Positions 29,442 through 60,268 of a stretch of DNA of 64,000 nt are shown piece by piece. Where the stretch lies: the NCBI GenBank assembly GCA_021770005.1, contig JAETRV010000006.1:4372-68371 (forward strand). Direction: 5' to 3'. The notes under the pieces were generated by a model, which worked only from the letters and a program-made list of their open reading frames with translations, made no database searches and had not been told where the DNA came from. The position numbers were made by a program, and so were the translations under genes. Numbering within the stretch: position 1 is the first letter of the stretch; each line of letters begins with the position of its first letter. The stretch is from Anaerotruncus sp. GTDB lineage: Bacteria; Bacillota; Clostridia; Oscillospirales; Ruminococcaceae.

Positions 29442-29461
29442 GAAAAAACCTCCTAATACTC

Positions 29462-31425: not shown

Positions 31426-31455
31426 GCTTTTCACTCCTTTGGAAATATCAGGTCC

Positions 31456-32252: not shown

Positions 32253-32265
32253 GGGGAAACTCCTT

Positions 32266-32928: not shown

Positions 32929-33539
32929 CAGGCGGCCTCCTTCCAGTTTTCCGGTCTCGGCAACGGCAGGTAGAGGACCTTCGCCTTCCGCTCCCGGTCA
33001 TACTTCCAGATCTCATACCGCAGCTCCTCCACCATATGCTTGTAATAATCGAAGATATGGGCGAGGGCTTTTAACAGAGAAAACTCCTGGTTGAACTCCG
33101 GGGAGAGGTAAAGGGTGATCCCGCTGGCCCACCGGTGGTTGACTTTCGTGCTGTAACGGTAGGTGTAATAATAGGAATATAGGCTGTCCAGCTGTTCCTC
33201 CAGCTCCGTCTTTGCCTGTTCCATATAAGGATTTCGCCGCAGGGGGACTCCTCTTTGTCTGGACCAATCCCGGCACAGGCGGTAAAAATCCATCATGCTC
33301 CGGTGGCTGAAAAACCAGCAGGTATCCATATAGGGTCCAACCTCTCGGCATTTCCAGAAGTCACAGACAGTGGTCACTCCCTCGATGATGTAGGAGTAAT
33401 AATCCTCCGCCACGATTGGCAATGCGCCGATCCCTTCCAGGTAATCCTCTTCCCTTCCGGCGTCGCTGAGGACCTTGCCGACCAGGATGGGGATGGGGAT
33501 AAGGCTCAGCTCAAAATTCTCATACTCGTAATCGTCCAT
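32928..33539 (-). CDS. hypothetical protein (aromatic-rich, 203 aa)
   Basis: GAAGGGGG RBS. Its stop overlaps the start of the E2-like gene (TGATG). Ends ...NWKEAA. Confidence 0.55.
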   Translation of the reverse strand: MDDYEYENFELSLIPIPILVGKVLSDAGREEDYLEGIGALPIVAEDYYSYIIEGVTTVCDFWKCREVGPYMDTCWFFSHRSMMDFYRLCRDWSRQRGVPLRRNPYMEQAKTELEEQLDSLYSYYYTYRYSTKVNHRWASGITLYLSPEFNQEFSLLKALAHIFDYYKHMVEELRYEIWKYDRERKAKVLYLPLPRPENWKEAA

Positions 33540-33552
33540 CCCACAGCCCCCT

Positions 33553-33858
33553 TCAGCAAAAGGCCCGCCGGAGGCTTTGGGAAATCGACCGACTGCAAAG
33601 CTGCCGGTTCATTTCCCATAAATAGAAGCGGCGATGGTAGTGGATCTTCGCCCCGTCCAGCAGGTCGTATAGGTCATCCAGGGTGAACCGGGAGTAGTCG
33701 ATTTGCTTGGGGATCAGCGGCTCTCCGTTCAAAATGGGGGAACAGACAGCTTCCATTAGGTAAGGGTCTATCTCTGCAAACTCGTTTTCGGCGGTATCCT
33801 CTGAGGTATCTTCCAGCAGCTGCCGGAAGGTCTGGGAATTTAATTCATACATTTTCAT
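33553..33858 (-). CDS. hypothetical acidic protein (101 aa)
   Basis: AAGGAG RBS directly after the methyltransferase stop. MKMYELNSQTFRQLLEDTSEDTAENEFAEIDPYL... Confidence 0.5.
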   Translation of the reverse strand: MKMYELNSQTFRQLLEDTSEDTAENEFAEIDPYLMEAVCSPILNGEPLIPKQIDYSRFTLDDLYDLLDGAKIHYHRRFYLWEMNRQLCSRSISQSLRRAFC

Positions 33859-33864
33859 TCTCCT

Positions 33865-35283
33865 TTATGCCAGCGCCTTGAAGCCGGCGGCGGTCAATAT
33901 GTGGAACACCATCTTGTTGGTCTGGGTCTCGGTGATCTCGGTCACCAGTGGTTTCCCTGTCAGGGCGTCTGTGCTGGTGACATGAGAATCGGTGAGCTGC
34001 TCCTTGACAATCCGCCCCTTGATGATATGGGGGCTGTCGCAGGGCATGAGGCCGTTAATGAGGCCGGAGCCGCCGATGAGTCCCACCTGTCCCACTGTCA
34101 GGGGGAGGGGCGGGCGCTTTTCTTTGCTATCCAGAGGACTTTGTTCCAATAGTTTTTTGAAGCTGTCCGATAGTTTTTTGAAGCTGTCCGAGGCGGCAAG
34201 CTGCCTTGCCAGCTCCGGGACATTGAACACCGCCCCCTTGAAGATGGGAACCTTCTCCGGGTGGGCGGGCAGCGGGTAGCTTTTCTCCGGCAGCTGGGTC
34301 AGCTCCGGAATTTTGTCCGCATCCTGCACCTGCCGGAGCAGGCCAGGGACCTCCTTGGAGCCATTGTCCCGTGGCTTGTGGATGCCCAGCACCGCCACCT
34401 GGCGGAACCGCTGGAACTCCGTGCCGCAGAATTTGTACACCGAGAGCCGCTCAAAGTTGTCGCAGAGGATGCGGGCGATGTCGGCGGTCAGCCGGTAATA
34501 GGGGATGATGTAGACCAGCAGGCCGCCCACCATGAGGTGGGAAAAGCTGTTTACCAGGAACCGCTTTTCATCCCGGCCGGTCTGGCCGTTCTTCCCCAGC
34601 ACCGAGAGGTAGGGGGGATTGAGGAACAGGGCGTGAAACGCCTCGTGACTGATCCGGGCGCTGAAATAGCTGCCGATGGCCACCCGGTGGAGCCTGGTCT
34701 GGGCCTCCTCCGCCCGGCGTTCGTCCAGCTCTACCCCGTAGGCGTAGCAGTTGTTGCCGGTGGCCATGAGGCGCAGGGCGATGCCGTCCCCGCAGCAGGG
34801 GTCCAGAAGGTTGGTGGTCACCCCGTCAGGAAATTCGATCCCCTTGGTGATGAGCTTCACATGGTCCGGGTCGGTGGGGTAAAATCCCATCCTCACATGG
34901 TTCATCAGCCGCCCGATGATGGCGGCGCTGGCGGTCTTATCCCCGGTATCCGGCATCCCCTTCACAAAGGCGGAGAGGGTGTCGCAAAGCCGGGAGTAGT
35001 CCGGGGTGGAAAGCTGGAACTTCGCCACCGCTTTCCCCAGGCCAAGGGCCGCAGCCGCCAGGTCGGGCAGGGAGAGGCGGCAGTCCTCCAAAGCGGCCAG
35101 CAGGCAGGCTTGATGGGAGCGCAGCGTCTGATACCAGTCCTTGGCCCCGTTGGGGTCTTTTTTCAGCTGTTTCTCAATCTTTTTCCTGGCGGCGGGCATT
35201 TCCTCCTTTGCCAGCAGGATGACCCGCTTGGACTGTTCCAGCCGGTCTACGGCGTATAGCTGCTGTTCGTTGACTTCTTCCAT
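33865..35283 (-). CDS. SAM-dependent N6-adenine (NPPY) DNA methyltransferase-like protein with a long C-terminal extension
   Basis: 472 aa. Motif I is LLDPCCGDGIAL and motif IV is LFLNPPY. Contains a 21-bp tandem duplication (SDSFKKL x2). Confidence 0.7.
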   Translation of the reverse strand: MEEVNEQQLYAVDRLEQSKRVILLAKEEMPAARKKIEKQLKKDPNGAKDWYQTLRSHQACLLAALEDCRLSLPDLAAAALGLGKAVAKFQLSTPDYSRLCDTLSAFVKGMPDTGDKTASAAIIGRLMNHVRMGFYPTDPDHVKLITKGIEFPDGVTTNLLDPCCGDGIALRLMATGNNCYAYGVELDERRAEEAQTRLHRVAIGSYFSARISHEAFHALFLNPPYLSVLGKNGQTGRDEKRFLVNSFSHLMVGGLLVYIIPYYRLTADIARILCDNFERLSVYKFCGTEFQRFRQVAVLGIHKPRDNGSKEVPGLLRQVQDADKIPELTQLPEKSYPLPAHPEKVPIFKGAVFNVPELARQLAASDSFKKLSDSFKKLLEQSPLDSKEKRPPLPLTVGQVGLIGGSGLINGLMPCDSPHIIKGRIVKEQLTDSHVTSTDALTGKPLVTEITETQTNKMVFHILTAAGFKALA

Positions 35284-35365
35284 CGTTAGAAACCTCCTAT
35301 TACAAGGAGGGGCAGGATCAGATGACCCAGCCCCTCCGATTTTTGCCCCAAATGGGTGTTTTCTT

Positions 35366-35974
35366 TTATGCCGCCAGCTCCTGAACAGGCTGGGCCTCCT
35401 CCTGGATGCGGGAAACGATGTAGCCCTTTTCCCGCAGGACTTCCAGAATGGCAGATACCAGCTCGCTATCCGGTTCCGGCTTTGGCGCAGGCTCCTTTGG
35501 CAAGGAAAGCACCGGCTTTTTGGCCGCTTTTTTCTTCGGCTTTATCATCCTGCGGAAAGGCGCAGTCAACAGCCTTTTCAGCCCGGACAGCAGCTTATTG
35601 GGGAGATACCGGCGCAGGCTCACTACCTCCTGGGCGGTGCAACTGCCGATGTTGGAGCGGTTCACCACCAGCCGCTTAGCCGAGACCTCCAGCGCCTGGA
35701 CAAAGTTCTTGGCGCAGAGAGTTCCTCTGGCCTTGCAGGTGGTGGCGTACAGTTCCCCAAAGGCCCCGCCGCCGATCTCCTCCTCCCGGATAAAGCCGGT
35801 ACGGAGGTTGACGGTATCCGCCTCCAGGCGGCGGGCGTCTACGATTCCCCGGCCCAGAAGCCGCCGAACCTTGAGGGTCCCGTTTACCTTCAGAACACCG
35901 TTGACAACCAGAGTATCCGTGGAAAGGATGCTGTAAAGGGCTGTCTTCCCCTTTTCGATGGTAATGGTTTTCAT
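35366..35974 (-). CDS. hypothetical protein: N-terminal beta-rich repeat region (bactofilin-like impression only), Lys/Pro linker, small C-terminal domain
   Basis: 202 aa. ATGA overlap with the E1 stop. LVVNGVLKVNGTLKVRRLLGRGIVDARRLEADTVNL... Ends ...VQELAA. Confidence 0.5.
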   Translation of the reverse strand: MKTITIEKGKTALYSILSTDTLVVNGVLKVNGTLKVRRLLGRGIVDARRLEADTVNLRTGFIREEEIGGGAFGELYATTCKARGTLCAKNFVQALEVSAKRLVVNRSNIGSCTAQEVVSLRRYLPNKLLSGLKRLLTAPFRRMIKPKKKAAKKPVLSLPKEPAPKPEPDSELVSAILEVLREKGYIVSRIQEEAQPVQELAA

Positions 35975-36744
35975 CTCCTTTTTTCTTTAATCGTAGGCCG
36001 CATATTGACGCTGGTGGTGGAAAAGGAGACCGCTTGGACATTGGTTTCCCCTCTCACCAGGATGTTGTAGACCAGAGCTACCACTGCGCAGGCCGCCGTG
36101 ATGTTGGCGGTAATGGCCTGTGGCGCCGAGACTGAAGCCTCGGCACAGGAAAGCTCGGTGGGGAACTTGTCGGTTCCGTCTAAGATTTCGGGGTACAGGG
36201 CCCCAACCGGCTTGTGGCAGGTGCGCCCGCCGCTGCGGACGCCGCACACCACCTGGCCGGTGTACTCCCCGTTGCCGCTGTCGATGTACACCAGGTCTTT
36301 CATCTGATAGAACACCTTATGGCAAAGGCTCCGGGACTTGTTGTTGTCCACCGCGCCGATGAGGATGACCAGCTCGGTGAGGGTTTTGTCGTGCCATTTC
36401 CCCTCTGAATAATACTGGCCGGTTTTCCAGATACGGGGCGTCACCAGCTTTTTCAATTCCTCTTCACTCTCAATGTAAGCGGGGATGTACTCGGTTTCCA
36501 GGCCAAAGACGGAGGAATACCGCTCGGCCAAAACCTTGGCTTTGTTTTCCCCTAAGTCCGCCTCAATGAAGTTCTGGCGGACCAGGTTCTTTTTCTCCAC
36601 CAGGTCGCCGTCCACAATGAGAAAACGGCAGTTTTCCTGGTCCAGCGCATAGAGCAGGCGGTAAAGGTGGGGGGCGATATGGCCTCCGGTGCCCCCTGCC
36701 CCCAGCATCACGATCTTGACCGGGCGATTTCGGGAAAATCTCAT
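35971..36744 (-). CDS. ThiF/MoeB/E1-like adenylyltransferase
   Basis: 257 aa starting from ATG 36744. MRFSRNRPVKIVMLGAGGTGGHIAPHLY...FLIVDGDLVEKKNLVRQNF carries the GxGxxG and D.D..E..NL.RQ motifs. As sequenced it is also the C-terminal part of ORF 35971..38175. Confidence 0.8.
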   Translation of the reverse strand: MRFSRNRPVKIVMLGAGGTGGHIAPHLYRLLYALDQENCRFLIVDGDLVEKKNLVRQNFIEADLGENKAKVLAERYSSVFGLETEYIPAYIESEEELKKLVTPRIWKTGQYYSEGKWHDKTLTELVILIGAVDNNKSRSLCHKVFYQMKDLVYIDSGNGEYTGQVVCGVRSGGRTCHKPVGALYPEILDGTDKFPTELSCAEASVSAPQAITANITAACAVVALVYNILVRGETNVQAVSFSTTSVNMRPTIKEKRR

Positions 36745-38133
36745 GCCGCCATCGCCCCTTTCAGGGTGAAACCGTCTTCCTCCCCCGTGATGGGGAAGGA
36801 GTCTTCCAGCAGTTGTATCCGGTTGCTCCACCAGTCGGGGAATGCCTTTGGCACCCCCCTCCAGCACATCGCCGGGGTGGATGGGCAGGAAAGTCCCGCC
36901 GTTGCAGATCCGGGCGGATACCTCCGGGAAGTATTGATCCAGCCGGCCCATGACGAGGTACAGGCAGTTTCCCTTCTCGTCGGCGTCGTCAATGCTGGAA
37001 AACTGGGCTGCCATGGAGTTATGCGAGTGTATATCGGCGTAGTAGATCAGCCCGTCCTCCTTCTCCGGGTCGATGGGGATGTCCGCAAAGATGCGGGCCT
37101 TGCTCACCTTCTGGTGGGGGATGTCCAGCAAAAATCTTTCCTCCAGCCGGTTCCAGTAGACCCGGACCAGGGCTTCGGTCTCGGCCCCGTCCCGCATACA
37201 GGAGCGGAAGAAGCCAATGACCTGCTGCACCAGCTCAAAGGGGATGAGGGGAAGGTTGGAATAAAAGCCCTCCCGAACTTCGCCCAATTCTGGGATTTCT
37301 TTTGGTCTGGTGATGAAGCGGCCGGACTCCATACAGCGAATTTCATACACATGGCCATCCCTGGCCGGGACAAAGTTGATGACCTTGGGGGCCTTCTCCA
37401 TCTCCTCCAGGGAGGAAAAAAGACCCTTATACGAGGCGATGCCCTTGGACTGGGCGGCGATGTGGGGGCGCACCTTGCAGGTGAAGTCCCTATCCTTGGC
37501 CTTTTTCAGCATATCCCGGAAGCCTTCGGACTTTTCTATCTCCGCCTTCATGTCGTGGATAACGGAGTCTTTGGGCTTGGGGATGGTTTTGGTGATCTTC
37601 CCGTACTCCATCGTCCAGGAAACACGCTTGCCATCCTCCAATTCGGGGAAGTCCGTCTCCTTCTCCTTGCGGAGTTGCTCAAAGGTCTTTTTCGAGTCGG
37701 TGATCTCCTCCGTCACGCCGCTAAACTGGAAAACCGGCGGCTTTTGGAGCAGTTCCCCGGCAAGGTCCTCGGTAATCTTTTCCTCCACCTGGCGCATGGC
37801 TGCCTCAAAGGGGTTTGCGGGCGCAGCAGACGGTTTGGCTGCCGCCTTGGGAGCCGCAGGCTTTTTTTCTGGGGCAGCGGCCGGTTGGGGCGGGGCTTCG
37901 GGTTCTTTTTCTTCTGGGACATTTGCATCCTCCTTCTTTTCTTTGGGCTCCGGCGTTTCGGCAGGGGCCTCTTTGGGCTGGGCGGTTTCTGTGGTTTCCG
38001 GAGCTTTTTCTTCCGGGGGCTGGGGCGCCGGTTCCTTCTCCGCGAACAGGGCGTCAAAATCCTCCCTGCCGCTGCCAAGGTCCAGGCTGCCCTCTCCTCC
38101 GAAAATCGCCATGAAATCCATGTTGTCACTCAT
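36741..38133 (-). CDS. JAB/MPN (JAMM) metallopeptidase with a long N-terminal region. The native C-terminus is in another frame: one extra G in a G6 run fuses it to E1 as sequenced.
   Basis: ATG 38133 has AAGGAGGA upstream. JAMM motif HSHNSMAAQFSSID (HxHx7Sx2D) at about 37029-36988. Deleting one G at 36854-36859 gives ...HPGDVLEG-VPKAFPDWWSNRIQLLEDSFPITGEEDGFTLKGAMAA-stop, and that stop forms an ATGA overlap with the E1 start. Confidence 0.7.
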
Positions 38134-38162: not shown

Positions 38163-38205
38163 AAAAAAAGACCACAGCCGGGCCCTTTTGGGCTGGCTAT
38201 GGTCT
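38163..38205 (-). terminator. intrinsic terminator at the 3' end of leader copy A, about 30 nt before the JAB start
   Basis: Minus-strand RNA reads agaccauagccagccc-aaaa-gggcccggcuguggucu followed by UUUUUUU. Confidence 0.7.
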
Positions 38206-38376
38206 TTCTGTCTGGTCGTATTTCGGTTTTCGTGTTGGACGGATTACGGCGGGGCGCACTGGCCCCTGGGGTCTTTCGCTCCTACCTTGGGCGGCACAAG
38301 GGGCCGCGCCACACTCCTACCTGAAATACAGGTCTATTTTAGCATGAGGAGGAGAGGGTGTACACTTGCACTTTTG
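38163..38376 (-). promoter_or_regulatory. promoter + ~165-nt structured leader + terminator cassette, copy A
   Basis: Extended -10 TGcTAAAAT (TAAAAT at 38341-38336). Conserved core contains two AGGUAGGAG repeats. Roughly 85-90% identical by manual alignment to 60061-60268. Confidence 0.65.
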
Positions 38377-49949: not shown

Positions 49950-49953
49950 GAAA

Positions 49954-50017: not shown

Positions 50018-50335
50018 TCAGACCAAATCTCTAAACACAAGACGGTTGGCGCAGCTCTCGATGGTATCCCGCACATCCTCCATGTAGCGGGTCTCCAGCT
50101 TCTGCCACTCCCGGTAAATATCCGCCAGAGGACAGGGAGAATCCAACAGGGCGCTGCCCTGCTCCACCGTAACATCCCGTTCCTCCAGCGCCATGAGAAT
50201 ATCCTCTCGGACACTGTACTCATAGGCGTGGTCTAAAATCTCCATGGGCGACAAGCCCAAAAGCCAGTCTCGGTAGGTATCCTGCTCCGCTTTCATCTTC
50301 CGGTACAAAATCGTAGTGAGTTCTTCCGCTGTCAT
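50018..50335 (-). CDS. hypothetical protein (resembles DUF3848-type proteins of Clostridia mobile elements)
   Basis: 105 aa. MTAEELTTILYRKMKAEQDTYRDWLLGLSPMEILDHAYEYSVREDILMAL. Confidence 0.5.
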   Translation of the reverse strand: MTAEELTTILYRKMKAEQDTYRDWLLGLSPMEILDHAYEYSVREDILMALEERDVTVEQGSALLDSPCPLADIYREWQKLETRYMEDVRDTIESCANRLVFRDLV

Positions 50336-50350
50336 ATCATCAATACCTCC

Positions 50351-51943
50351 TTAAATCCTGCCGGAAAGCAGCCGCTCGGCCACCTGCTGGCCGCCCAGCT
50401 CGCTGATCCGGTAGATCTCATCGCAGAAGGGCGCCAGGGTAAACTTCATCCCAGGGGTGGCCTGGTCCATCAGGATGCCGGTGATGGTGAATCCCATCGC
50501 CGCCTTTTTCTTCTGAAGCTCCCGGACAAAGGGCTCGGACACCCTGCATTCCCCATCGGTGATGAATACCACATCCGCCTGCCGGAACTCCCCGGTCTCC
50601 ATGAGCCGGAAAGCCTCCCGCAAGGAGGTCTCGTAGTCGGTGCCGCCGTCCAGGAAGGTGGAGGCGGAGGTCAACACATCCTCCGGGGCATACTGGCCGG
50701 GACGAAAAATATCTGTCCTGAAATCATCTTCATCGGAGAAGTGGATAAGGGCAAAATTCCGCCGATGGAATCCGGTAACATCCAGCAGGGCATAGGCCAC
50801 AGCCTTGCCCCAGGCGGCGTTGTCCCCGCCATGCTGCATGGTGGAGCCAGATTCATCCAGACAGACGATCTTATCCCCCTGGCCCTTGCAGACCTTTTCC
50901 CGTCGCTGGTGCTGGAGCAGCGCCCTTCGCTGGTATTTCCGCAGAAAGAGGGGGATGGTCTCCGGGGCGGCCAGCGGCCCGAACTCGGAGGAAAGCACGC
51001 TCCGCAGCCGGTTGCCCAGCTCCAGGCCGTATTTTTCGCCCCTGCCGTAGACGGTGGCGTTTTTGCGCTTCATTCGCATCATCTCCCGCAGGCGGCCCAG
51101 GTATTGGGAAATCTTCACCAGCTGTTCGTTCTGCCGGACCTTTTGGAGCAGCTGCCCGTTGAGGGCATCCGGCCGCATATTTCCGGGGTCGGTCCCCCAG
51201 GACAAAAGAATCTGGGCCGTTTCCTCTGCTTTCTCCATAGCGGCCTGTTCAGCGGCGGACAGCACAGCCTCCACCTGTTCCTGGTGATGGAGAAGGTTGT
51301 CCTCCACCATCTTCTCCAAAGCGGCCAGCTGCCGCACCTTGCTTTCGGCCCGGTTTGCCAGCCGGAGAATTTTTTTCTCCAGCTTGGAGTCCGGTTGGGA
51401 GGGGTCGTGGCGATCCAAGAGCTGTCGTAGCTGTTCCAGCCGTTCCTCCTGTTTGACAGTCTCCTTTTCCAGCACCGAAAGGCTCTGCTTCGGCCCGTTG
51501 GCGGCGTCCATCAGCCGGTCCAGGTTTTCGCAGGCCTGGCGCATGAACTCCTCCGCCGCATCGTAAGCGGGCAGCTCGTTTCCCTCGCAGACGGCCCTCA
51601 TGGCTGGGTAGACGGGGGACTGCATCAGCTGGCGCAGGATAGGACGGTGGAACTTTTTTGCCATGGGGGAAAGCTGCTCCTCCGGTTTCTCCCGAACATT
51701 CATGCTGAACAGGCTTTGGAACACATCACGGGAAAGGCCCCCGATACCGGGCAGCTTCCCCTGAGCCTGCTTTTCCAGCTTGCTCAACATATCGTCCCTG
51801 CCCTCTCGGACCTCCCGGTAAATTTCGTCCTCGATCCTCCTGGAGTAGAGGGTCCGGTTCTCCTTCCCGAACACCGTTTTCAGGCGGTCGCAAAAGAAGG
51901 CCGATTTCATCAGCCTGCCGAAATCAATAAAAGCGTCTCTCAT
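50351..51943 (-). CDS. von Willebrand factor A (VWA) domain protein, CoxE/NorD-like partner of the MoxR ATPase
   Basis: 530 aa. MIDAS motif VCLDESGST...DVVFITDGEC in the C-terminal third; long helical N-terminal region. Confidence 0.7.
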   Translation of the reverse strand: MRDAFIDFGRLMKSAFFCDRLKTVFGKENRTLYSRRIEDEIYREVREGRDDMLSKLEKQAQGKLPGIGGLSRDVFQSLFSMNVREKPEEQLSPMAKKFHRPILRQLMQSPVYPAMRAVCEGNELPAYDAAEEFMRQACENLDRLMDAANGPKQSLSVLEKETVKQEERLEQLRQLLDRHDPSQPDSKLEKKILRLANRAESKVRQLAALEKMVEDNLLHHQEQVEAVLSAAEQAAMEKAEETAQILLSWGTDPGNMRPDALNGQLLQKVRQNEQLVKISQYLGRLREMMRMKRKNATVYGRGEKYGLELGNRLRSVLSSEFGPLAAPETIPLFLRKYQRRALLQHQRREKVCKGQGDKIVCLDESGSTMQHGGDNAAWGKAVAYALLDVTGFHRRNFALIHFSDEDDFRTDIFRPGQYAPEDVLTSASTFLDGGTDYETSLREAFRLMETGEFRQADVVFITDGECRVSEPFVRELQKKKAAMGFTITGILMDQATPGMKFTLAPFCDEIYRISELGGQQVAERLLSGRI

Positions 51944-52014
51944 AAGTTGTCCTTTCCGGCGTCCAAAATGGGGAGAGCCGAAGCCCTCCCCGTGGTAACG
52001 CCACAGTTTATTTT

Positions 52015-52530
52015 TTAGAACGGCAGGTCTCCGGTCTCCTCTACTTCCTCGAAGGAAGAGGAAAAGCTGGATACCAGACCATCAAAGCCCGCAAAAGCGG
52101 CACTGAAGTCGGCGGCGGCCGGTGCAGCTGCGGGAGCCGCGGCCGGGGCTTGTGCCGGGGCCGCAGGCTGGGGCAGATAAGAGGGCCTTTCCGCTGTCCC
52201 GTCTGCCGGGACGGTTTCGATGGGGGCAAAGCCCACCCGTTCGGCCAGGATACGCACCCCCTCATGCTTGCTGCCATTTTTGTCCGTCCAGGGGGCGGCC
52301 TGCAAGCTGCCGGTGACTTCGATGAGCTTTCCCTTCTGGAAGTTGTTGGCGATAAACTCCGCCGTGGAACGCCACGCCTCCACATTAAAGAAGTCGGCCT
52401 TTTTCTCCTTGCCCTTGCCGGCGTACCGGTCACAGGCGATGCGAATGCCCACATGGAATACCCCCGCCGGGGTCTGGCGCAGCTCCGGGTCTTTGGTGAG
52501 CCTGCCGGTGATCACGATTGCGTTTGCCAT
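52015..52530 (-). CDS. ssb: single-stranded DNA-binding protein
   Basis: 171 aa. OB fold MANAIVITGRLTKDPELRQTPAGV..., an Ala/Pro-rich linker, and an acidic tail ending DLPF. Confidence 0.9.
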   Translation of the reverse strand: MANAIVITGRLTKDPELRQTPAGVFHVGIRIACDRYAGKGKEKKADFFNVEAWRSTAEFIANNFQKGKLIEVTGSLQAAPWTDKNGSKHEGVRILAERVGFAPIETVPADGTAERPSYLPQPAAPAQAPAAAPAAAPAAADFSAAFAGFDGLVSSFSSSFEEVEETGDLPF

Positions 52531-52872
52531 TTATGGTTCCTCCTGTTCTTTTAGGGCGGGATTTTCCCTGCCCTGCTTGTCGTAGATATTCCAGAGGATG
52601 TGCCGGAGCGTTTCCCGCCAATCCCGCCGTTCGTACCGAAACCAACGGCAAAGGGTCAAAAGAGGATGGGGAAACCGGTTCAGATACAGCAGATGCTCCT
52701 CATTCCAATCCCCGATACCGGAAAGCCGGCGGTAGAGGGTCTCACAGACAGCGATCTCTTCTGACCTGGCAAGAAACGCCTGGGGCGTAAGCCCGGAAAT
52801 CCTCTGACGAAAGGTGGCGTAGTCCAAGTCCAGCTTGTCCCGAAGCCCCTGTGGAAGATCATTTCTGCCCAT
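52531..52872 (-). CDS. hypothetical protein (113 aa)
   Basis: ORF 52531..52971 trimmed to ATG 52872 (GGAAGGTGG upstream). Confidence 0.45.
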   Translation of the reverse strand: MGRNDLPQGLRDKLDLDYATFRQRISGLTPQAFLARSEEIAVCETLYRRLSGIGDWNEEHLLYLNRFPHPLLTLCRWFRYERRDWRETLRHILWNIYDKQGRENPALKEQEEP

Positions 52873-53062
52873 TTGCAGACCACCTTCCCAGCCCCTTGCG
52901 AAAGCCCGCAAGGAAATTCTCTGCCAGCTTGCCGAGGAAAACGGCCAGTCCACCCAGCAGCCACAGGCCAATGAGAACCTGCGCCACCCTGGAGCGCAGC
53001 AGGCAGAGCAGCAGGATAACCAGGGTGATGCCGATGAGTACCGAAAGCAGCTTGTGTTTCAT
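52859..53062 (-). CDS. small membrane protein (67 aa, two TM segments)
   Basis: MKHKLLSVLIGITLVILLLCLL...VLIGLWLLGGLAVFLG. Fills the gap between the MoxR gene and the downstream gene. Confidence 0.45.
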   Translation of the reverse strand: MKHKLLSVLIGITLVILLLCLLRSRVAQVLIGLWLLGGLAVFLGKLAENFLAGFRKGLGRWSANGQK

Positions 53063-53078
53063 AACTTAGTCCTTTCCT

Positions 53079-54458
53079 TTAATTCTGGTTGCCGGGGCCC
53101 ATCAGGGCCTCCAGCTCGTTCAGTGGGATGTAGGTGAGATTGGTGGCGGCGTGGGCCTTCTGGCTGGCCTTTTCCAGTTCCTCCAGCAGCCCGTCCACCT
53201 GGGCAGTTTCGGTGTCGTTCTGGGCGTAGGCCCGCAGAGCGGTGATCTTGCGGTAAAGCTCCACCGCCTCGGTGCGGAACCGCTGGAGCGCCCGCACCAC
53301 ATCCCCGTCCGGGGTCTGCTCAAACCGGGCCACAGTATCCACCACCGCCTTGCGGATCTCAGAGATCTTCCCGCCCAGGGGATTCTCGCAGAGGCGGGTC
53401 AGCACCTGGCTGATCTTGGGCAGCTCCTCCGGGCTGGTCCATAGGTAGTTGCGGAGGATGATCAGGTCTGTCCCGATTACCTCATCCCTGCCGCAGAGCC
53501 AGGCGTGGGCCTGGACGATGGGGTAATAGCCGAAATATTTCCGGTCGGAGACATGGACTCCCTGCCGGCGCAGTTCCATGAGGATGTCGTCCATCAGCTC
53601 ATTCACCGCAGCCGGGACACGCACCGAGGAAACCTCCTTCTGCATTTCACAGAGTTCCTCCAGGGTGATGGTGGGCCCGGTAAGAGGGGCCTCCTTGTCC
53701 TCGGCCTGCTTTTTGACCAGCATCGCCAGCCGGGTATTCCGGTCCTCTATGTACTTGACATAGAGCTTCAGCTCCAGCCGGTCGTAGAGGGGCCGGAGGA
53801 TGGACTCAGCGGGGTCGTTGAAATTGGGAATTTCATTGGACGCCGTGAAGAAGGAGATGGTGGGAATGTCCACCGTCACCCCCTCGTTGGTGTACCGCCG
53901 CTCGTTGAGGGCGGTGAGCAGGGAGTTTAAGACCCCATCGCCAGCCTTAAACAGCTCGTCAATGAAGACAATATGGCTCTCTGGGATCTTCCCCTTAGTC
54001 TTGATATGGGGGTCGTTGCCGTGAAGCTCCGCCAGGGCCTTTCGGTAGTCCTGGGTAAGCTGTGCCATTTCCCCCACCTGCCGGAGCCGTTCCGGGGCGG
54101 GGTCGTTGGCTAGGTTTTGCCGGGCATCAGACAACCCCTTTCGCAGGGACTGATAAACGCTGTCCTGCTCCAGAACCTCCTCGGAGACATTTCCGGGGAT
54201 GAGGCTCCCCAGGTCCAGGCGGCCAAAAAGCTGCTCCTCGTCACTCTGCTTGGAGATGAGCCGCTCAAACTGCTTCGCCCCCAGGATGCGGCGGCGGAAC
54301 CGGTTGATGGCGTAGCTTTTGGCCGCGCCGGTATCCCCCAGGATAAAGAGGTTTTTCCTGGTGAGCAGACAAACGGCGATCATGTTGATAAGCTCCCGGC
54401 GTTCGGCCACTTCCTCATTGACAGCACTGATAACAGCGATCATTTTTTCCTTCAGCAT
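53079..54458 (-). CDS. MoxR-like AAA+ ATPase
   Basis: 459 aa. Walker A GDTGAAKS, Walker B IVFIDELFKA, followed by NSLLTALNERRY. Confidence 0.75.
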   Translation of the reverse strand: MLKEKMIAVISAVNEEVAERRELINMIAVCLLTRKNLFILGDTGAAKSYAINRFRRRILGAKQFERLISKQSDEEQLFGRLDLGSLIPGNVSEEVLEQDSVYQSLRKGLSDARQNLANDPAPERLRQVGEMAQLTQDYRKALAELHGNDPHIKTKGKIPESHIVFIDELFKAGDGVLNSLLTALNERRYTNEGVTVDIPTISFFTASNEIPNFNDPAESILRPLYDRLELKLYVKYIEDRNTRLAMLVKKQAEDKEAPLTGPTITLEELCEMQKEVSSVRVPAAVNELMDDILMELRRQGVHVSDRKYFGYYPIVQAHAWLCGRDEVIGTDLIILRNYLWTSPEELPKISQVLTRLCENPLGGKISEIRKAVVDTVARFEQTPDGDVVRALQRFRTEAVELYRKITALRAYAQNDTETAQVDGLLEELEKASQKAHAATNLTYIPLNELEALMGPGNQN

Positions 54459-54766
54459 TTTCCATTCCTCCTAACATACCAGCCCATGACATCACAGATC
54501 TTCCGGCTCTCCTCGATGGCGGCGGCGTCAGACCTGTCCAGGTCCGTCTCCTCGGCCAAGCGGGTAATCAGCAGCGCGGCGATGCGGTAAAGGCCGGTGT
54601 TACTTTCCTCCTCCGAGCCTGCCAGCAGGCAGTCTACAAACCGGTTATAGTTTTCCGGCTGGCTGGCCATAGAACCGGCGAATTTCTTCAGTTCCATGGC
54701 AAGGTTCCCGGCGGAGATAGTACGCTCCGCCCGCTGGGGTCTCAAAACTCTTGTTGTCTCGCGCAT
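54452..54766 (-). CDS. hypothetical protein (104 aa)
   Basis: Tightly packed in the operon: it overlaps the MoxR start by 7 nt and begins 1 nt after the stop of the upstream gene. Confidence 0.45.
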   Translation of the reverse strand: MRETTRVLRPQRAERTISAGNLAMELKKFAGSMASQPENYNRFVDCLLAGSEEESNTGLYRIAALLITRLAEETDLDRSDAAAIEESRKICDVMGWYVRRNGKC

Positions 54767-54767
54767 A

Positions 54768-55145
54768 TTACGCAGCCTCCTTTTTCATTTCCTCGTTGCA
54801 GATCTCAATGACCTCCTGGCACTGGGCCATGGTAAACTGGGCGATATGGGTGCGGTAGTCGGGAAGCTTCATCTTTTTTGCCAGCCAGTGGTAGGCTTCG
54901 CTCCGTTTTAGCCCCTTTTTTCTCCACAGGGGGTCAAAAGCGTTGTGGGCTTCCCGGCGCTTGCTTCTCAGGGCGGCGTTGGCCAGCGTCCCAAGGGGCT
55001 TTTTTGTCCCATCGTGGACGCCCACATAGGCCCCGCAGTTGGTGCAGTAGTAGATGTTCCCATAGCTTTTGCCGTGGTAGACGATAGCGGAATCGGTGAA
55101 GATCACCTTGCCGCCGCAGTAATCGCAGATAGTGGGGATTTTCAT
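54768..55145 (-). CDS. zinc-ribbon protein
   Basis: ORF 54768..55172 trimmed to ATG 55145 (GGAGG upstream). CDYCGG...CTNCGAY has two CxxC pairs. Ends ...KKEAA. Confidence 0.55.
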   Translation of the reverse strand: MKIPTICDYCGGKVIFTDSAIVYHGKSYGNIYYCTNCGAYVGVHDGTKKPLGTLANAALRSKRREAHNAFDPLWRKKGLKRSEAYHWLAKKMKLPDYRTHIAQFTMAQCQEVIEICNEEMKKEAA

Positions 55146-55161
55146 AGAGATGACCTCCTTC

Positions 55162-55758
55162 TTATGCCGCAAGCTGTACCCGCAGCTTTTTCCTTGTCCG
55201 GTAGAGGCAGTTATCTACCGTCTTGGGGTCCATGCCGGAACGCTCCGCGATCTCAGCGTAGGTATGGCCGAAGGAGCGCAGGCGCAGCACATTCCCCTGG
55301 CGGACAGTGACCAGCTTTTTGGTTTTGTCCCACAGCTCGCTGAACTCCGCAGCTTCATAAGCCTCCCCGGATACCGAGGCATCGGAGAGAAAGCGCAGGG
55401 CCGCCTCATAGGCGGAGCTGTCCTGGTTTATCCGGGAGCGGCGGCGGGCCTCCTTTCGGATAAGCCCCAGCAGCTCCCAGCGCATGGCGTTGACCGCCAC
55501 GGTGGTGAAGCTGTATCTCCGTAGCTCCGGGCGTTCATCGTACTGCTGGACCGCCCGCATATACCCGTCCAGGGCGGCATCGTAAATATCCTCCTTCTCC
55601 AAAAAGGAAAAGGGGACTTCTTCGGAAGAACGACAGGCGTTCTTCTGGTTTACCCAGCGGAAGGAGAGGAACCATTTCAGGAGGCTGTAATGCTCCTCCA
55701 TGAAGCTGCTTTGCTCCGGAGTAAAGGGGTGCAGGGTGGTATTGGTTCTTTCACTCAT
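55162..55758 (-). CDS. sigma-70-family (ECF-like) RNA polymerase sigma factor
   Basis: 198 aa. Region 2-like DIYDAALDGYMRAVQQYD; region 4 HTH LRSFGHTYAEIAERSGMDPKTVDNCLYRTRKKL. Confidence 0.7.
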   Translation of the reverse strand: MSERTNTTLHPFTPEQSSFMEEHYSLLKWFLSFRWVNQKNACRSSEEVPFSFLEKEDIYDAALDGYMRAVQQYDERPELRRYSFTTVAVNAMRWELLGLIRKEARRRSRINQDSSAYEAALRFLSDASVSGEAYEAAEFSELWDKTKKLVTVRQGNVLRLRSFGHTYAEIAERSGMDPKTVDNCLYRTRKKLRVQLAA

Positions 55759-55770
55759 GACATTTTCCTC

Positions 55771-56958
55771 CTATGCGGCTTTGGCCGCGGTCTTTTTGGT
55801 TTTGGCGGTCTTTTTCTTGGCGGAAGCCTTTTCCTTCTGCTCCTGCTCTACTTTCGCCTTTTCCACGCGCTTGACCGGCCGTCTGGGGACCAGCATATAC
55901 TTCTCGCTCCCGTTGGCGGCAATCAGCACGCCGTCCTGGGAGACAGACAACGCCAGCATCCCCTCCATGAGGCGGATGCCCTGGAGAAAATCGGACGCCT
56001 TGTAATAGAAACCGGTGTCCCCCGGCATGGCGTTCAGCACCCCTGCCTCCAGCCAGGTGCTGGAGTTGACCCCGTTGGGGCCATCGCAGGAGAGAAAGAG
56101 CTTTTTGTCCAGGGAGAAGCGCAGCTGAAGGCTACTGTATCCATCGGTGGCAGCGGTGACCATCTCCACCGCCTGGCGGAGGGCCTTGGCTTCCACCAGC
56201 GCCCGGTATTTCCCCGGCGTGGCCAGAAGTCCGTCCACATCCAGATAGGGGATCTCCACGATCCGGGAGGTGAAGTACAGGCCCGGCCGGAAGAAAACGG
56301 CGCTGTGGTCCTGTATCCCCAGGTAGACGGTCTCCTTATCCTCCACCAGCCCCGCTAATACACGAAGGGACTTGGCGGGGAGCAGAAGCTCCAGAGCGCC
56401 GCCGCTTTCCGCCTTTTCCCTTGTTTCCACAAGGCGGCTGCCATCGCAGGCAACAGCCTGGACGGAATTGGGGGCGATCTCCAGGCGGACGCATTCCATC
56501 TGCTTCTGTTCGCTTTTCTTGGCGGCGGCAAAGGTGGTGGATCGCTCCAGAGAGGGCAGGCCGGTGAGCCGCACCAGGGTATCCGGCACCGGTATCTTCA
56601 CGCTGGTGAGGATGTCCGGCTTCAAGGTCCCAACGGTGTATTCGGTGTCCCGGCATTTTAGGCGGAGCAGCCCGTTTTTTAGGGACTCCACCGAAACGCG
56701 GTCTCCGCTGGTCAGGCCCAGCATACCGGTGAGCAGCTGGGCGTTGATGATGGCGGAGCCACCGGCCTCCACATCCGCCTGAACCTCGCAGCGGATGGCG
56801 ATCATCAGGTCGGCCCCGAAAAAGGATACCTGCCCGGTGTTTTCATCGGCTTCCACCAGGACACCGGTGAGTTCGGCGATGGGGGAGTTTTCGGGAGCCG
56901 CCTGGGCCGCCTTACGGGCGGCGGAGAGGGCTTGTTTTCTATCAATATGGAATTTCAT
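55771..56958 (-). CDS. dnaN: DNA polymerase III beta-subunit-like sliding clamp (element-encoded) with a Lys/Ala-rich tail
   Basis: 395 aa. MKFHIDRKQALSAARKAAQAAPENSPIAELTGVLVEADENTGQVSFFGADLMIAIRC... has a three-domain clamp-like layout. Confidence 0.65.
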   Translation of the reverse strand: MKFHIDRKQALSAARKAAQAAPENSPIAELTGVLVEADENTGQVSFFGADLMIAIRCEVQADVEAGGSAIINAQLLTGMLGLTSGDRVSVESLKNGLLRLKCRDTEYTVGTLKPDILTSVKIPVPDTLVRLTGLPSLERSTTFAAAKKSEQKQMECVRLEIAPNSVQAVACDGSRLVETREKAESGGALELLLPAKSLRVLAGLVEDKETVYLGIQDHSAVFFRPGLYFTSRIVEIPYLDVDGLLATPGKYRALVEAKALRQAVEMVTAATDGYSSLQLRFSLDKKLFLSCDGPNGVNSSTWLEAGVLNAMPGDTGFYYKASDFLQGIRLMEGMLALSVSQDGVLIAANGSEKYMLVPRRPVKRVEKAKVEQEQKEKASAKKKTAKTKKTAAKAA

Positions 56959-56976
56959 AGATGCCTCCTTTTGGTG

Positions 56977-59900
56977 TTAAGCAGAAATCTGCTCGAAGAA
57001 AGAGAGTTGGTTTTCGTCTGTTTCGGCAGGGGCCTTTTTCCTCCGGCGTGCCAGCTGGCTGTAAGTGATGAAGGTAAGGGGCTGGGTAGGCTCCGTCGGC
57101 TGTTCGGCCACCGGGAGCAGGACCACTGACTTGGGAATCGGCTTCTCCGGGGGCGGCAGTTGCCGCACCTCGCCTTGTGGGTGCAGAAAGGCCATCTTCT
57201 TAAAGACAGCGCCGATATCCTCTACCTCGCTCTTGATCCCCAAAGCCAGCTCCTTGGCCAGCTGGGAGGTCATATCCTGGCAGTTGGACATGGCGGCAAG
57301 GCCCTCATCGGTGATGTTCCCCTCGATGATACCGGCCACCGCCAGCTTGGAGGCCATGAGCTGCATGGCCCGCTCCTGGATGGTGTGCTTGTAGTAGAAG
57401 AAGTACACTTCCACTCTGGGGGCGGTCTGGTTGATCCGCCAGCTGCGGCGGGAGGCTTGGCGCAGGGTGAACAGGTTGTACCCCATGTTATAGAAGATGA
57501 GGGTGGTAAAGGCATTGGCGTCCAGCCCCGTCTCAATAAGGGAGGGGTTGCAGATGAGGACCTCCAGGCCGTTTGCCAGCTGCTTTTCGATCCACCGCTC
57601 CCGCTTGATGGGCTCAATGTTCGCAGGCAGCACGGCGGCGCGGCAGCCCCGTTGGGTCAAAAGCCCCAAGAGCTTTTGCTGGGTGTCGATCCGCACCCAG
57701 CTGGTGTAGATCAGTACCTTTTCCCCCTTCTCCACCTTCTGCCGGACCAGCTCCAGGACTTTCATATCCTTCTGGTGCAGTTCCTCCGGCTGGGCGGTGT
57801 CCATGGGAATCACCAGCGGCCTGCCATCGTAGTCCAGCACCGGCGGGATGCCGTAGGGTTGGTCGGGGTAGACCGTGAGGGTGTTGAGATAGGCAGAAAG
57901 GAGCTTCCTGGCGGTTTTCCGGTCCGAGCGCATCAGGCTTTGGAAGGCTTCGGTGAGGCGTTTATACTCCCGCTCCACCTCCGGGCGCATGGCAAGCCCG
58001 ATGGGAATTTCCTCGTATTCGGGTAGGTCCTTCCCCATATCCATCAGGGAGAGAAAGGCCGTGTTTTCCAGGAGAAAACGGGAGTAGACCAGAGGGGAGA
58101 CCCCCGGCAGCATCCGTTCCCCTTTTTTCGTGCGGGAGGCCCTGCGGTTGGCGTTGTACTTCGCCTCCTTGGCCTCGAAGGTGCTTTCCACCACGCCGTA
58201 CTCATAGCAAAAATGCTTGGGAGCAGCATACGCCTGACCGTCCGCCACCATCTCCGCCGGGGCCAGCCGGAACAAGAGGTGGAAGATGCCGGAGGCATAG
58301 CCGTTGATAAGGGTGGCGGTCATACCCACCACCTTTTTTGCCGTCCCCGCGATCTCCGCCATAGCGTCCCCCTGGCCGCTGTCCTGGGCATACTGGTGAA
58401 GTTCATCCGCAAGGAGGGAGTCGATCTTTCCCTTCATCTTCCGTCTGATGAAGGAGCTGATGGGGAATCGCCGGCAGCCATAGGAGGGATTGTCGAACCT
58501 TTCCGGGTTTTGGGAAAGCTCCCGCAGCGAATCCAGTACCTGGGGCGACCGGGTCTTGTTCTGGTAGGTCCAGAGGAAATCCCGATGGACAAAACCGAAG
58601 CCGCCGATTTTTGCCCATTCGTGAAAACGGGAAGATGGGGCAGCAGCACAAAGAAACTGTTCTGGTTTGCAGAAGGGCTCCCACAGAACGCCGCCGCACT
58701 CTTTGCACTTGTGGTTTTTGCTGTTCTCCCGCAGAAAAAAGGCCGGTTCGGCTGGGACATCATAATGAATCCTGCCTTCGCTGATCTCCTCCATAATAGG
58801 GTTATGGCAGTGTGGACAGAGGAAAGCCTTTTTTCGTCGGTTCCACTGGACAGCGGGGGCCCGCAGATACCCGTCCCTGGCCCGCTCTTTGGAGAGGATA
58901 GCGTAGGCGGTGCGGTCTCCCTTTTCGTAGGCCCGGTAGAGTTTTTTCAGGTCCCGGATGCTGGTGACGATGCCGGCAAAGGCGTCCGGGACTGTTTCCT
59001 CCACCTCCCGCACCCACTTTTCGGTGATGTGGGAGGGGCAGAGGACTACATTGAAGGTCTTTTTCTTTCCGACGGCCAGGTGGCTGGCGGTGAGAGCGGT
59101 GAGGCCGATCTTCGTTTTTCCCACACCACATTCCGCCACCAGCAGGGCGGGCTGGTGTTGATCCAGCCTTCGCTTCAGCCCTTCAGCTGCGGCAAGCTGG
59201 GCATCGTAGAGGGGGTATCCGGCCTTCCGGCGGATGTTGTCGTTGACGGTCAGGACGCTCTGGGAAAGCGCCTCCGATGCCGGGTCGAACAGGGGGACAA
59301 ACTGCCCCTTGATCCGCTGGGCGATGTTGGCCCCGAATTTTTGCAGATACCCGGTGACCGTCTGAATGTCCTCGAAAGCGGCGGCGTTCTCCGGCGTGGA
59401 GCCGGGGATGGAGATGCTACCGCTTTTCAGCCCGTCCTCCACGACCTGGACGATGTTCCTGTCGTCCTTGGTGCAGGTGAGCTGCCAGGCGTCAAACCGC
59501 TTGGTGCGGCTGATGACCTCCAGCTTTCGCAGGATGCTCCGCTCTTGCAACTCCGCCAGCAGGTAGTCCCGGAAATCGGGGATGAGGAGGACGCCGATGC
59601 GCTTGTCGATCTCGCTGAACAGGCGGTCCCTGTCCCCCTGGGGGCAAAAGATGTAGCGTCTCAGCGGCGGGCCCTCCAGTTTCGTCTGCCCTTTCTGGGC
59701 TTTTTCCTGTGCCGCCGGTTCCGGTTCGCTGTCCCGCAGGAACAGGGTAGCCTCGGCGTAGATACCATCGTGGGTAAGCTGCCGCTGGTATTGCTTGGGA
59801 AGGGTGTCCAGCTTTAAGTCCGGCTCCACCTCCACAGTGCCGCCGCCATAGATGGCGTCCGCAAGCCCCCGCACCTTTTCCGGTTCCCCGCCAAAGCGGA

Positions 59901-60024
59901 TGGCCGCCAGCTGGGGGCCATTGTCTCCGGCCGGGTCGTACACGATGGTATCCGCATAGCAGTCGAGCCGAATGCCTCCTTTCTTGTCCTCGTAGGTCAC
60001 TTTCCAAAGTTGTGGCTGGCTCAT
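56977..60024 (-). CDS. SNF2/DEAD-like superfamily-2 helicase with an inserted zinc ribbon and a ~280-aa unknown N-terminal domain
   Basis: 1015 aa. Motif I AECGVGKTK, motif II LADELHQY, zinc ribbon CPHCHNPI...CKECGG, and a helicase-C region ...QASRRSWRINQ. Confidence 0.8.
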   Translation of the reverse strand: MSQPQLWKVTYEDKKGGIRLDCYADTIVYDPAGDNGPQLAAIRFGGEPEKVRGLADAIYGGGTVEVEPDLKLDTLPKQYQRQLTHDGIYAEATLFLRDSEPEPAAQEKAQKGQTKLEGPPLRRYIFCPQGDRDRLFSEIDKRIGVLLIPDFRDYLLAELQERSILRKLEVISRTKRFDAWQLTCTKDDRNIVQVVEDGLKSGSISIPGSTPENAAAFEDIQTVTGYLQKFGANIAQRIKGQFVPLFDPASEALSQSVLTVNDNIRRKAGYPLYDAQLAAAEGLKRRLDQHQPALLVAECGVGKTKIGLTALTASHLAVGKKKTFNVVLCPSHITEKWVREVEETVPDAFAGIVTSIRDLKKLYRAYEKGDRTAYAILSKERARDGYLRAPAVQWNRRKKAFLCPHCHNPIMEEISEGRIHYDVPAEPAFFLRENSKNHKCKECGGVLWEPFCKPEQFLCAAAPSSRFHEWAKIGGFGFVHRDFLWTYQNKTRSPQVLDSLRELSQNPERFDNPSYGCRRFPISSFIRRKMKGKIDSLLADELHQYAQDSGQGDAMAEIAGTAKKVVGMTATLINGYASGIFHLLFRLAPAEMVADGQAYAAPKHFCYEYGVVESTFEAKEAKYNANRRASRTKKGERMLPGVSPLVYSRFLLENTAFLSLMDMGKDLPEYEEIPIGLAMRPEVEREYKRLTEAFQSLMRSDRKTARKLLSAYLNTLTVYPDQPYGIPPVLDYDGRPLVIPMDTAQPEELHQKDMKVLELVRQKVEKGEKVLIYTSWVRIDTQQKLLGLLTQRGCRAAVLPANIEPIKRERWIEKQLANGLEVLICNPSLIETGLDANAFTTLIFYNMGYNLFTLRQASRRSWRINQTAPRVEVYFFYYKHTIQERAMQLMASKLAVAGIIEGNITDEGLAAMSNCQDMTSQLAKELALGIKSEVEDIGAVFKKMAFLHPQGEVRQLPPPEKPIPKSVVLLPVAEQPTEPTQPLTFITYSQLARRRKKAPAETDENQLSFFEQISA

Positions 60025-60060
60025 TTACAATGGTCTTCCTCCTTTTTCTTAAATTCAAAC

Positions 60061-60103
60061 AAGAAAAGACCACAGCCAGGCCCTTGCGGGTTGGCTATGG
60101 TCT
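60061..60103 (-). terminator. intrinsic terminator at the 3' end of leader copy B, about 40 nt before the SNF2 start
   Basis: Minus-strand RNA reads agaccauagccaaccc-gcaa-gggccuggcuguggucu followed by UUUUCUUGUUUG. Confidence 0.65.
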
Positions 60104-60268
60104 TTCTGTTAGGTGTATTCAGGTTTGGTGGACAGGTTACGGCGGGGCGCACTGGCCCCTGGGGTCTTTCGCTCCTACCTTGGGCGGTCTTTGGGGCCGC
60201 GCCACACTCCTACCTAAAATACAGGTCTATTTTAGCACGAGGAGGAGGGGGTTTACACTTGCACTTTT
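60061..60268 (-). promoter_or_regulatory. promoter + ~160-nt structured leader + terminator cassette, copy B
   Basis: Extended -10 TGcTAAAAT (TAAAAT at 60234-60229). Same conserved core as 38163-38376. Confidence 0.65.

Follow-up and report, generated by a model that had tools for sequence, protein, structure and literature searches.

A promoter, repeat leader and terminator cassette precedes both large operons of an integrated mobile element in Anaerotruncus sp.

We analysed a 64,000-nucleotide stretch of the Anaerotruncus sp. contig JAETRV010000006.1 (hereafter the window), which carries an integrated mobile element, and within it the minus-strand region 60061-60268, termed copy B. The best explanation for copy B is that it is one of two regulatory cassettes gating transcription into two large operons of this element. 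In this cassette, a near-consensus sigma-A-type promoter starts an RNA of ~160 nt that bears tandem purine-rich 9-mers in its 5' part and ends in an unusually long-stemmed terminator ~30 nt before the first start codon, and the same arrangement is conserved in ~100 distinct relatives, before the same two operon types. By default, the terminator would stop most transcripts, so that both operons would be off or held at a low set level, until a trans-acting factor, encoded by the element or by the host, switched on read-through. Such a factor would probably recognise the 9-mer array on the nascent RNA, and would then either render RNA polymerase resistant to the hairpin or block hairpin formation. 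We hold this reading, a gate closed by default and opened in trans with the 9-mer array on the nascent RNA as the most likely recognition site, tentatively and with slightly less than even confidence.

The cassette and its relatives

The promoter of copy B consists of a -35 hexamer, TGTAAA (60252..60257), separated by a 17-bp spacer from an extended -10 element, TGCTAAAAT (60229..60237). Six nucleotides past the -10, at 60222, begins the invariant block GUAUUUUAGG (60213..60222), which marks the inferred transcript start and provides the 5' strand of a putative closing helix, P1. The 9-mer AGGUAGGAG occurs at 60207..60215 and again at 60172..60180, where it is followed by GCGAAAGACCCC, and between the two repeats lies a lineage-specific G+C insert, GGCGCGGCCCC-aaaga-CCGCCC (60182..60203); the string AGGTAGGAG is found twice per copy. 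Further downstream are the octamer gaaagacc (60170-60163), a local hairpin termed HP2 (GGGGC-cagugc-GCCCC, GGGGCCAGUGCGCCCC; 60144..60159), an A/C-rich linker containing the 3' strand of P1, ACCUGAAUAC (60115..60124), and an intrinsic terminator (60061..60106) of ~18 pairs, including a U-G wobble, with the loop GCAA and the tail UUUUCUU. The ribosome-binding site AAAGGAGGAAG and the ATG of the first gene, at 60024, complete the layout (60022..60045).

Copy A, the second cassette, has the same layout at 38163..38364 on the minus strand, with the -35 TGTACA (38364-38359), the -10 TAAAAT (38341-38336), a start at ~38329, repeats at 38322-38314 and 38287-38279, and a terminator (~38212-38163) with a U7 tail and a folding free energy (ΔG) of -30.7 kcal/mol. 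The two copies share 92% identity over a 143-nt leader core. Across the window, the 9-mer has five matches against an expected 0.31, and 0 of 100 shuffles reach five. Compared with shuffled sequences, the minus-strand RNA folds with z scores of -4.0 (copy B) and -5.7 (copy A), the plus strand reaching -2.2 only.

A pattern scan of species-representative (GTDB) genomes returned five close copies, all in mouse-gut metagenome-assembled genomes of Oscillospiraceae and Angelakisella and two of them on one contig, and a looser DNA pattern applied to metagenome contigs returned at least 120 stretches, many of the contig records being labelled human-gut metagenome assemblies. When we looked up relatives of the JAB protein encoded behind copy A, to 39% protein identity, a homologous promoter, leader and terminator lay directly upstream in every one. 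No relative was found in IMG/VR with two DNA patterns and two protein queries, and blastn against phage and plasmid collections gave no match. With duplicates removed, the family comprises at least 104 distinct leaders, mostly from human-gut metagenome contigs, and the family counts given here are among the matches listed. They fall into three lineages, W (the window's type, 9), T (34) and C (57), together with four intermediates.

Throughout the family, the -35 has the form T(T/A/G)T(A/G)CA and stands 17 bp upstream of the -10, which reads TAnAAT in ~100 of 108 cassettes, with TG at -15/-14 in 63 of the 108. The 5' block follows GUAUUYYAGG, of which GUAUU..AGG is invariant in a 42-sequence alignment. 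The 9-mers share the consensus AGG(G/U)N(G/A)GAG and number two to four per cassette, most cassettes carrying three with a period of 15-16 nt; their core, AGG..GGAG, is conserved and the spacers are variable. They are placed at +8/+23/+38 in lineage T and at +8/+24/+40 in lineage C. Lineage W has two only, at +8 and +43/44, its G+C insert occupying the place that the middle 9-mer, repeat 2, has in the other lineages; the loop block of this insert is variable, with an indel. After the repeats, the leader continues with a purine-rich stretch, a G+C hairpin (GGGGC...GCCCC), a segment complementary to the 5' block, an A-rich linker and the terminator. The first gene could be called for 98 cassettes and is of the JAB type in 65 and a helicase in 27 (92/98 for either type), and in nearly all 98 the start codon follows the terminator at a distance of 25-34 nt.

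The cassette is a widespread conserved family, more than chance would yield, and its RNA motif is uncatalogued in RNA family catalogues: Rfam 15 detected two tRNAs only over the window, nothing relevant on 59900-60500 at E values up to 10, and left the leader unmatched at nine diverse family loci. A literature search by motif also returned nothing relevant. EAR, one of the antitermination RNAs that the original prediction had put forward as a precedent, has no Rfam match here.

Several members depart from the common layout. One cassette carries four repeats through duplication of a whole 16-nt unit (L202:4021-4189), another has a 50-nt hairpin insertion within its leader (L214:1613-1822), a third is a decayed copy (L165:2265-2381), and a relative of the element contains a group II intron domain (L121:5772-5848; Rfam RF00029, 64 bits).

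The regular array also raises the possibility that the repeats act as DNA, either as operators for a roadblock repressor or as loading sites for a Q-like protein at a promoter-proximal paused polymerase. Such a role would fit the invariance of the region from the -10 element to +25 in lineage W, the direct repeats from +8, the parallel with the PR'-6S RNA-tR' layout of lambda, and the sigma-like and helix-turn-helix (HTH) proteins that the element encodes. However, a spacing of 15-16 bp puts the sites on opposite faces of the helix, and the outer spacing in lineage W is 35-36 bp as against ~31. A TAnnnT pause-type hexamer is present at +2 to +7 in some members only, most having TATTTC or TATTCC, and no Q homologue was found with Pfam, PHROGs or a comparison of the DUF3268 fold. 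We therefore consider action of the repeats as DNA decidedly improbable.

Terminator, leader folds and candidate switches

The copy B terminator fits the definition of an intrinsic (Rho-independent) terminator, with a G+C-rich hairpin and a U tract on the transcribed strand, and has a ΔG of -28.6 kcal/mol. As the original prediction pointed out, its arms, AGACCAUAGCC and GGCUGUGGUCU, contain one U-G wobble on the minus-strand RNA that would be a C-A mismatch if the plus strand were read, and the loops are AAAA in copy A and GCAA in copy B. Family terminators have stems of 13-21 pairs, ΔG values of -20 to -30 kcal/mol, tails of 4-7 U and 2-4 G-U pairs each. In a covariance-model alignment of 98 distinct sequences, both partners have changed in 12 of the 18 pairs of the helix, 93% of cells are paired, and the covariation score was reached by 0 of 500 shuffles; the wobble of the window is replaced by C-G in L091 and by U-A in L101. 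Because of these compensatory changes and the many G-U pairs, the comparison of sequences leaves both the hairpin and its reading on the minus-strand RNA well supported.

The paired substitutions reported between the two window copies fared less well. The apical-stem strings (gccAGccc/gggCCCggc and gccAAccc/gggCCUggc) are indeed present, but the changes between them are not compensatory: in the nine-sequence alignment of lineage W, columns 140/155 pair in one of nine sequences and columns 141/154 likewise in one of nine. The ancestral state of this apical stem is an AA/CC internal loop, from which each window copy gained one different pair independently.

Reading the upstream flank in three relatives (L112, L115 and L121) showed that the upstream operon has its own terminator just before the cassette promoter, so that the cassette terminator acts on the transcripts of the cassette promoter itself. 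Since this terminator sits between promoter and first gene, with no space for a second promoter, expression of the operon requires read-through, and the claim that a strong terminator between a near-consensus promoter and an operon implies expression by read-through stands.

Within the leader, P1 would close the RNA by pairing the 5' block GUAUUYYAGG with CCUGGAA, GAAUAC or GAAAUAC. It is part of the minimum free energy (MFE) fold of nearly all of 43 representatives and is 88-94% paired, and its pair 6/220 occurs as C-G (57), U-G (27) and U-A (10) in the covariance-model alignment, which is fitted to the structure. P1 beats dinucleotide shuffles in 11 of the 43 sequences only (p 0.047 for copy B), and on these comparisons we regard it as plausible, not proven. 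HP2 is 100% paired in lineage W and keeps four G-C pairs across the 98 distinct sequences; RNAalifold run on raw MAFFT alignments recovers this local hairpin and the terminator only.

The original prediction favoured a conditional terminator, which in its self-contained form would be an attenuator or riboswitch using a second helix (helix 2) and the gaaagacc octamer, as a terminator mimic, for alternative partners under ligand or protein control. All the strings that it quoted are present on the minus strand where it placed them. The two copies do not differ in the arms ggcgcggcccc (60203-60193) and ggggcc-agu-gcgcc (60159-60146), which enclose uugug in copy A and aaaga in copy B; helix 2, whose 3' arm overlaps HP2, is in the MFE fold of both, and the octamer occurs in eight of nine lineage W sequences. 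Comparison with relatives tells against the model. Helix 2 is limited to lineage W, with no counterpart in lineages T and C, and shows no compensatory change: its outer five pairs are 82% paired, with uncompensated changes, and its 5' arm is altered without compensation in L092, L246, L106 and L089. The G+C insert that contains this arm can alternatively fold as a local hairpin, and a fold using the family-wide local hairpin lies within 0.1-1.0 kcal/mol of the helix 2 fold and is the MFE structure in L106 and L089. The octamer is lost in L089 and without counterpart in other lineages, an 8-bp duplex cannot compete with an 18-pair stem, and no conserved antiterminator was found. The attenuator model, highly improbable in our estimation, is largely refuted by these comparative data. 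Covariation in a larger alignment, which the original prediction had named as its own test, is clear in the terminator, weak in P1 and absent from helix 2.

Other switch mechanisms gave similar results. Across the 43 representatives, the best leader duplexes with the 5' arm of the terminator have z scores of ~0 against shuffled arms and use differing leader segments, and a platform for an alternative-hairpin attenuator or riboswitch was rejected, no conserved segment pairing with this arm being found. In a zipper-type arrangement like cATT, the leader attenuator of pLS20, a long central stem has a 5' flank complementary to the terminator and can thereby extend into an antiterminator; in the cassette RNA, the 5' end finds its partner 7-19 nt before the terminator and is not complementary to the terminator arm. 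Pairing of a GGGCGG repeat with UUGCCC at the top of the 5' arm is seen in lineage T, is absent in lineage W and is not above chance. An RNA G-quadruplex built from GGNNGG units appears in the MFE fold of 3/43 full leaders and 1/43 5' parts, and the bipartite conAn system does not match the cassette, whose promoter runs directly into a 160-nt leader and terminator with no intervening open reading frame (ORF). Judged from sequence, there is no support for the classical antiterminator hairpin, for an extension of the zipper type or for the mimic model; because no leader segment is able to compete with the stem of the terminator, the cassette does not appear to be a self-contained RNA switch. What remains of the conditional-terminator reading is the minus-strand terminator and the need for read-through, whereas helix 2, the paired substitutions and the mimic found no support.

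A leader ORF with Shine-Dalgarno (SD) sequence and start codon that reaches the terminator is present in 0/9 sequences of lineage W, 12/34 of lineage T and 55/57 of lineage C. Since it is absent from lineage W, leader-peptide attenuation cannot explain the window copies. In lineage C (for example L111:2314-2466 and L150:11043-11200), the last repeat is a strong SD sequence, GGAGGUGA, with a short ORF 7-8 nt further on that stops at the terminator base or runs past it (55/57 sequences), and these sequences suggest that lineage C may use translation-coupled read-through.

The cassette could also be a stand-alone small-RNA gene, producing an abundant and stable RNA of ~160 nt with a paired 5' end and the terminator at its 3' end. 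Its SD-like 9-mers would then sponge a protein or pair with targets, and the operon would receive a fixed small share of read-through, the terminator setting the ratio of RNA to mRNA as in type III toxin-antitoxin loci. Promoter, structured RNA and strong terminator are the anatomy of such a gene, the motif is present two to four times per RNA in two cassettes per element, and no switch element was found. Yet the cassette always stands at the fixed distance of 25-34 nt from the first gene of two operons that have no other promoter. Clusters complementary to the motif were not found elsewhere in the elements, the downstream genes are not ToxN-like, and the repeat unit measures 15-16 nt, not 34-40 nt. 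We regard a stand-alone small-RNA gene as unlikely.

The element, its operons and candidate factors

Both operons lie on the minus strand. Operon B, behind copy B, extends over 10 kb (50018..60024) from an SNF2/ResIII helicase gene (56977-60024, 1015 aa) through genes for a DnaN-like clamp, a sigma-like protein, a DUF3268 protein, a MoxR ATPase, SSB, VWA and DUF3848 to a 20-pair terminator (49997-49953). Operon A, behind copy A, spans 11 kb (27397..38133), begins with a JAB-ThiF gene (35971-38133, 720 aa), continues with genes for a DUF6094 methyltransferase, an E2-like protein, Rad52, an SMC-like ATPase, a primase and DUF6744, and ends at a terminator (27315-27293); a JAB protein of 86% identity is encoded by Anaerotruncus sp. 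X29. Past operon A are small HTH genes, an excisionase-like gene and an integrase fragment, adjoining a tRNA gene at 22603, and positions 1-22 kb of the window are ordinary chromosome. In two relatives (L247 and L150), both operons are contiguous, each with its own cassette upstream; in the window, they are separated by 10 kb of metabolic and transport genes (39890-49950), encoding MarR, MatE, an aldo/keto reductase, DUF362, a permease, DXS, a transglutaminase-like protein and ECF-S, a block that could be a cargo insertion or a rearrangement.

Collinear paralogous genes for an aldo/keto reductase and a 4Fe-4S protein lie to the right of each element half (41961-43075 and 61617-62728), with 73-78% nucleotide identity in three blocks at a constant offset of 19653. 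The integrase ORF (23303-24160, 285 aa) matches N-terminal SAM-like domains only and no catalytic domain, and this gene, adjoining the tRNA gene (22603-22676), could be truncated or carry a frameshift. At the end of operon A, two related terminator-like sequences (26351-26395 and 27274-27318) are 76% identical and 923 bp apart, and in the chromosomal part a 62-nt G+C-rich repeat occurs twice (7921-7982 and 14943-15004, 82% identical). At 24640-24830 on the minus strand, a promoter-like sequence, TTGCTT-16-TAGAAT, has an intrinsic terminator (AAGACCUCCGG...CCGGAAGUCUUUUUU) no more than ~15 nt behind it, and the excisionase-like HTH_17 gene and the integrase fragment lie ~110 nt further downstream; this site scored 29 bits with the cassette covariance model, and just upstream of it are three to four direct repeats of (T)TGCCTT(G/A)CAC.

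Further minus-strand terminators are found downstream, at 27315-27293, 26221-26184 and ~24700-24650, ahead of the excisionase-like and integrase genes. They would suit a model in which the leader RNA acts in cis and without any factor to reprogram RNA polymerase, as put of HK022, EAR and canT of Tn916 do, so that the terminator is passed only by transcripts begun at the cassette promoter. Conservation is higher in the leader than in the proteins behind it, since leader sequence blocks persist at 39-45% identity of the first protein; the leader is also orientation-specific, with Tn916 canT as a precedent (PMC11658703). On the other hand, an antiterminator that was always active and stood right in front of its own terminator would leave neither with a purpose, since the upstream operons already have terminators of their own. 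Stems longer than 14 bp resisted conAn (PMC10325885), and those here have 13-21 pairs; the leader shows little covariation and no Rfam match. This cis-acting alternative appears quite unlikely to us.

Candidates for a trans-acting factor were sought among the element's proteins. A DUF3268 zinc-ribbon protein (54768-55172) is encoded beside the sigma-like gene in all lineages. The sigma-like protein was rejected as an antiterminator because it resembles SigH, which makes it a sigma factor, and a 201-aa gene upstream of the helicase cassette was rejected as a regulator, being confined to one lineage.

Several observations weigh against a gate opened in trans through the nascent 9-mers. Pfam and PHROGs identified no antiterminator-like, NusG-like or RNA-binding protein among the element genes scanned, and the DUF3268 protein, tried as a Q-like factor, has no sequence match in the PDB and, as a single-sequence AlphaFold2 model (pLDDT 79.5), no fold match among solved structures. 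Strong internal terminators are absent from both operons, so nothing requires processivity, and the showing of P1 against shuffles gives weak statistical support for leader structure. The 9-mers could be recognised as DNA or serve another purpose, and constitutive leaky read-through would produce the same sequence picture.

A more far-reaching reading, possible but on balance unlikely, is that the 9-mer array is the platform of an undescribed antitermination system. In such a system, a host or element factor, or else the RNA alone, would join RNA polymerase at the leader and take it past the long-stem terminator, switching on both operons together, and possibly the downstream excision genes, across a widespread family of integrative elements in gut Firmicutes. 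The terminator passed would then belong to a class that is resistant to the one Gram-positive conjugative-element system known so far.

Gut Firmicutes harbour many integrated elements, about which little is understood. Because ~100 variants of the cassette precede genes for replication, recombination and modification, it is probably the main activation checkpoint of such elements. Promoter, leader and terminator together measure ~200 bp and can be moved into reporters as one piece, which offers a handle on the gate-opening factor, and the alignment and covariance model could seed a new RNA family entry. If read-through is factor-driven, the cassette would show how a long-stem terminator is overcome.

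Relation to known systems

By layout, the closest system is the late control region of phage lambda, in which a constitutive promoter, PR', gives a short terminated 6S RNA ending at tR', and Q is the antiterminator. The cassette resembles it in having a strong promoter, a terminated transcript of 150-200 nt and a promoterless long operon behind, whose expression thus depends on passage of one terminator. Unlike lambda, it comes without a Q homologue or a conserved sigma-dependent pause hexamer, its conserved features are on the RNA (the 9-mers, the G+C hairpin and a possible 5'-3' helix), and it is present as two cassettes per element in Firmicutes hosts. Q-type antitermination was rejected on the mostly TATTTC/TATTCC sequences at +2 to +7, the lack of a Q family by Pfam and PHROGs, and a DUF3268 model without a Q-like fold match.

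Tandem RNA repeats are known from two other settings. In the B. subtilis trp leader, with TRAP, and in hut, with HutP, a leader terminator is controlled by a protein that binds short RNA repeats arranged in tandem, and in the cassette, too, a 5' leader places tandem purine-rich repeats ahead of an intrinsic terminator. The TRAP and HutP repeats are triplets spaced 2-4 nt apart that overlap the antiterminator or terminator, whereas the 9-mers recur at 15-16 nt, 60-110 nt upstream of the terminator, with no competing hairpin. Type III toxin-antitoxin loci of the ToxIN type combine tandem RNA repeats of 34-40 nt, a terminator and a gene for a ToxN/AbiQ-family endoribonuclease; this type was rejected here, where the period is 15-16 nt and the downstream gene is a helicase or JAB-ThiF gene.

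By host and element type, the closest systems are the pLS20 leader attenuator with conAn, canT of Tn916 and EGeRS. In pLS20 (cATT and conAn; PMC13401043, PMC8191782), as in the cassette, a leader terminator precedes a long operon of a Gram-positive mobile element and read-through decides expression. Unlike in pLS20, no cassette sequence zips onto the terminator arm, no protein gene lies between promoter and terminator, and the leader is ~160 nt long rather than 456 nt. The conAn system stands at the start of its operon and consists of the ConAn1 gene followed by a ~380-nt conAn2 region with a 16-bp G+C block and SL1. In pLS20, terminators whose stems exceeded 14 bp were resistant to conAn antitermination (PMC10325885); the cassette stem, put here at 16-19 pairs, belongs to this long class.

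Like the cassette, canT of Tn916, put of HK022 and EAR are orientation-specific RNA elements upstream of terminators in a mobile element or long operon; they differ in not being paired one-to-one with an adjacent terminator and in lacking tandem 9-mers. Tn916 canT, an A+T-rich region of 452 nt, has no defined motif and was shown by reporter assays to be cis-acting, processive and orientation-specific (PMC11658703), and because it is functionally defined its likeness to the cassette is in logic only.

In plasmids of the pLS20 family, EGeRS are conserved sequences that recur ahead of every establishment operon (PMC8708921). They share with the cassette a regulatory sequence repeated just upstream of the ribosome-binding site of several operons, forming a regulon, and the operons concerned encode SSB-, anti-restriction- and recombination-type functions. 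EGeRS1 differs in its length of 420-750 bp and in having no constitutive promoter, EGeRS2 is a promoter with a repressor operator, and neither type is a promoter with repeat leader and terminator. The cassette lacks the testable features that define each of these closest systems, and the most apt description of it is a leader terminator gate for an operon of a mobile element.

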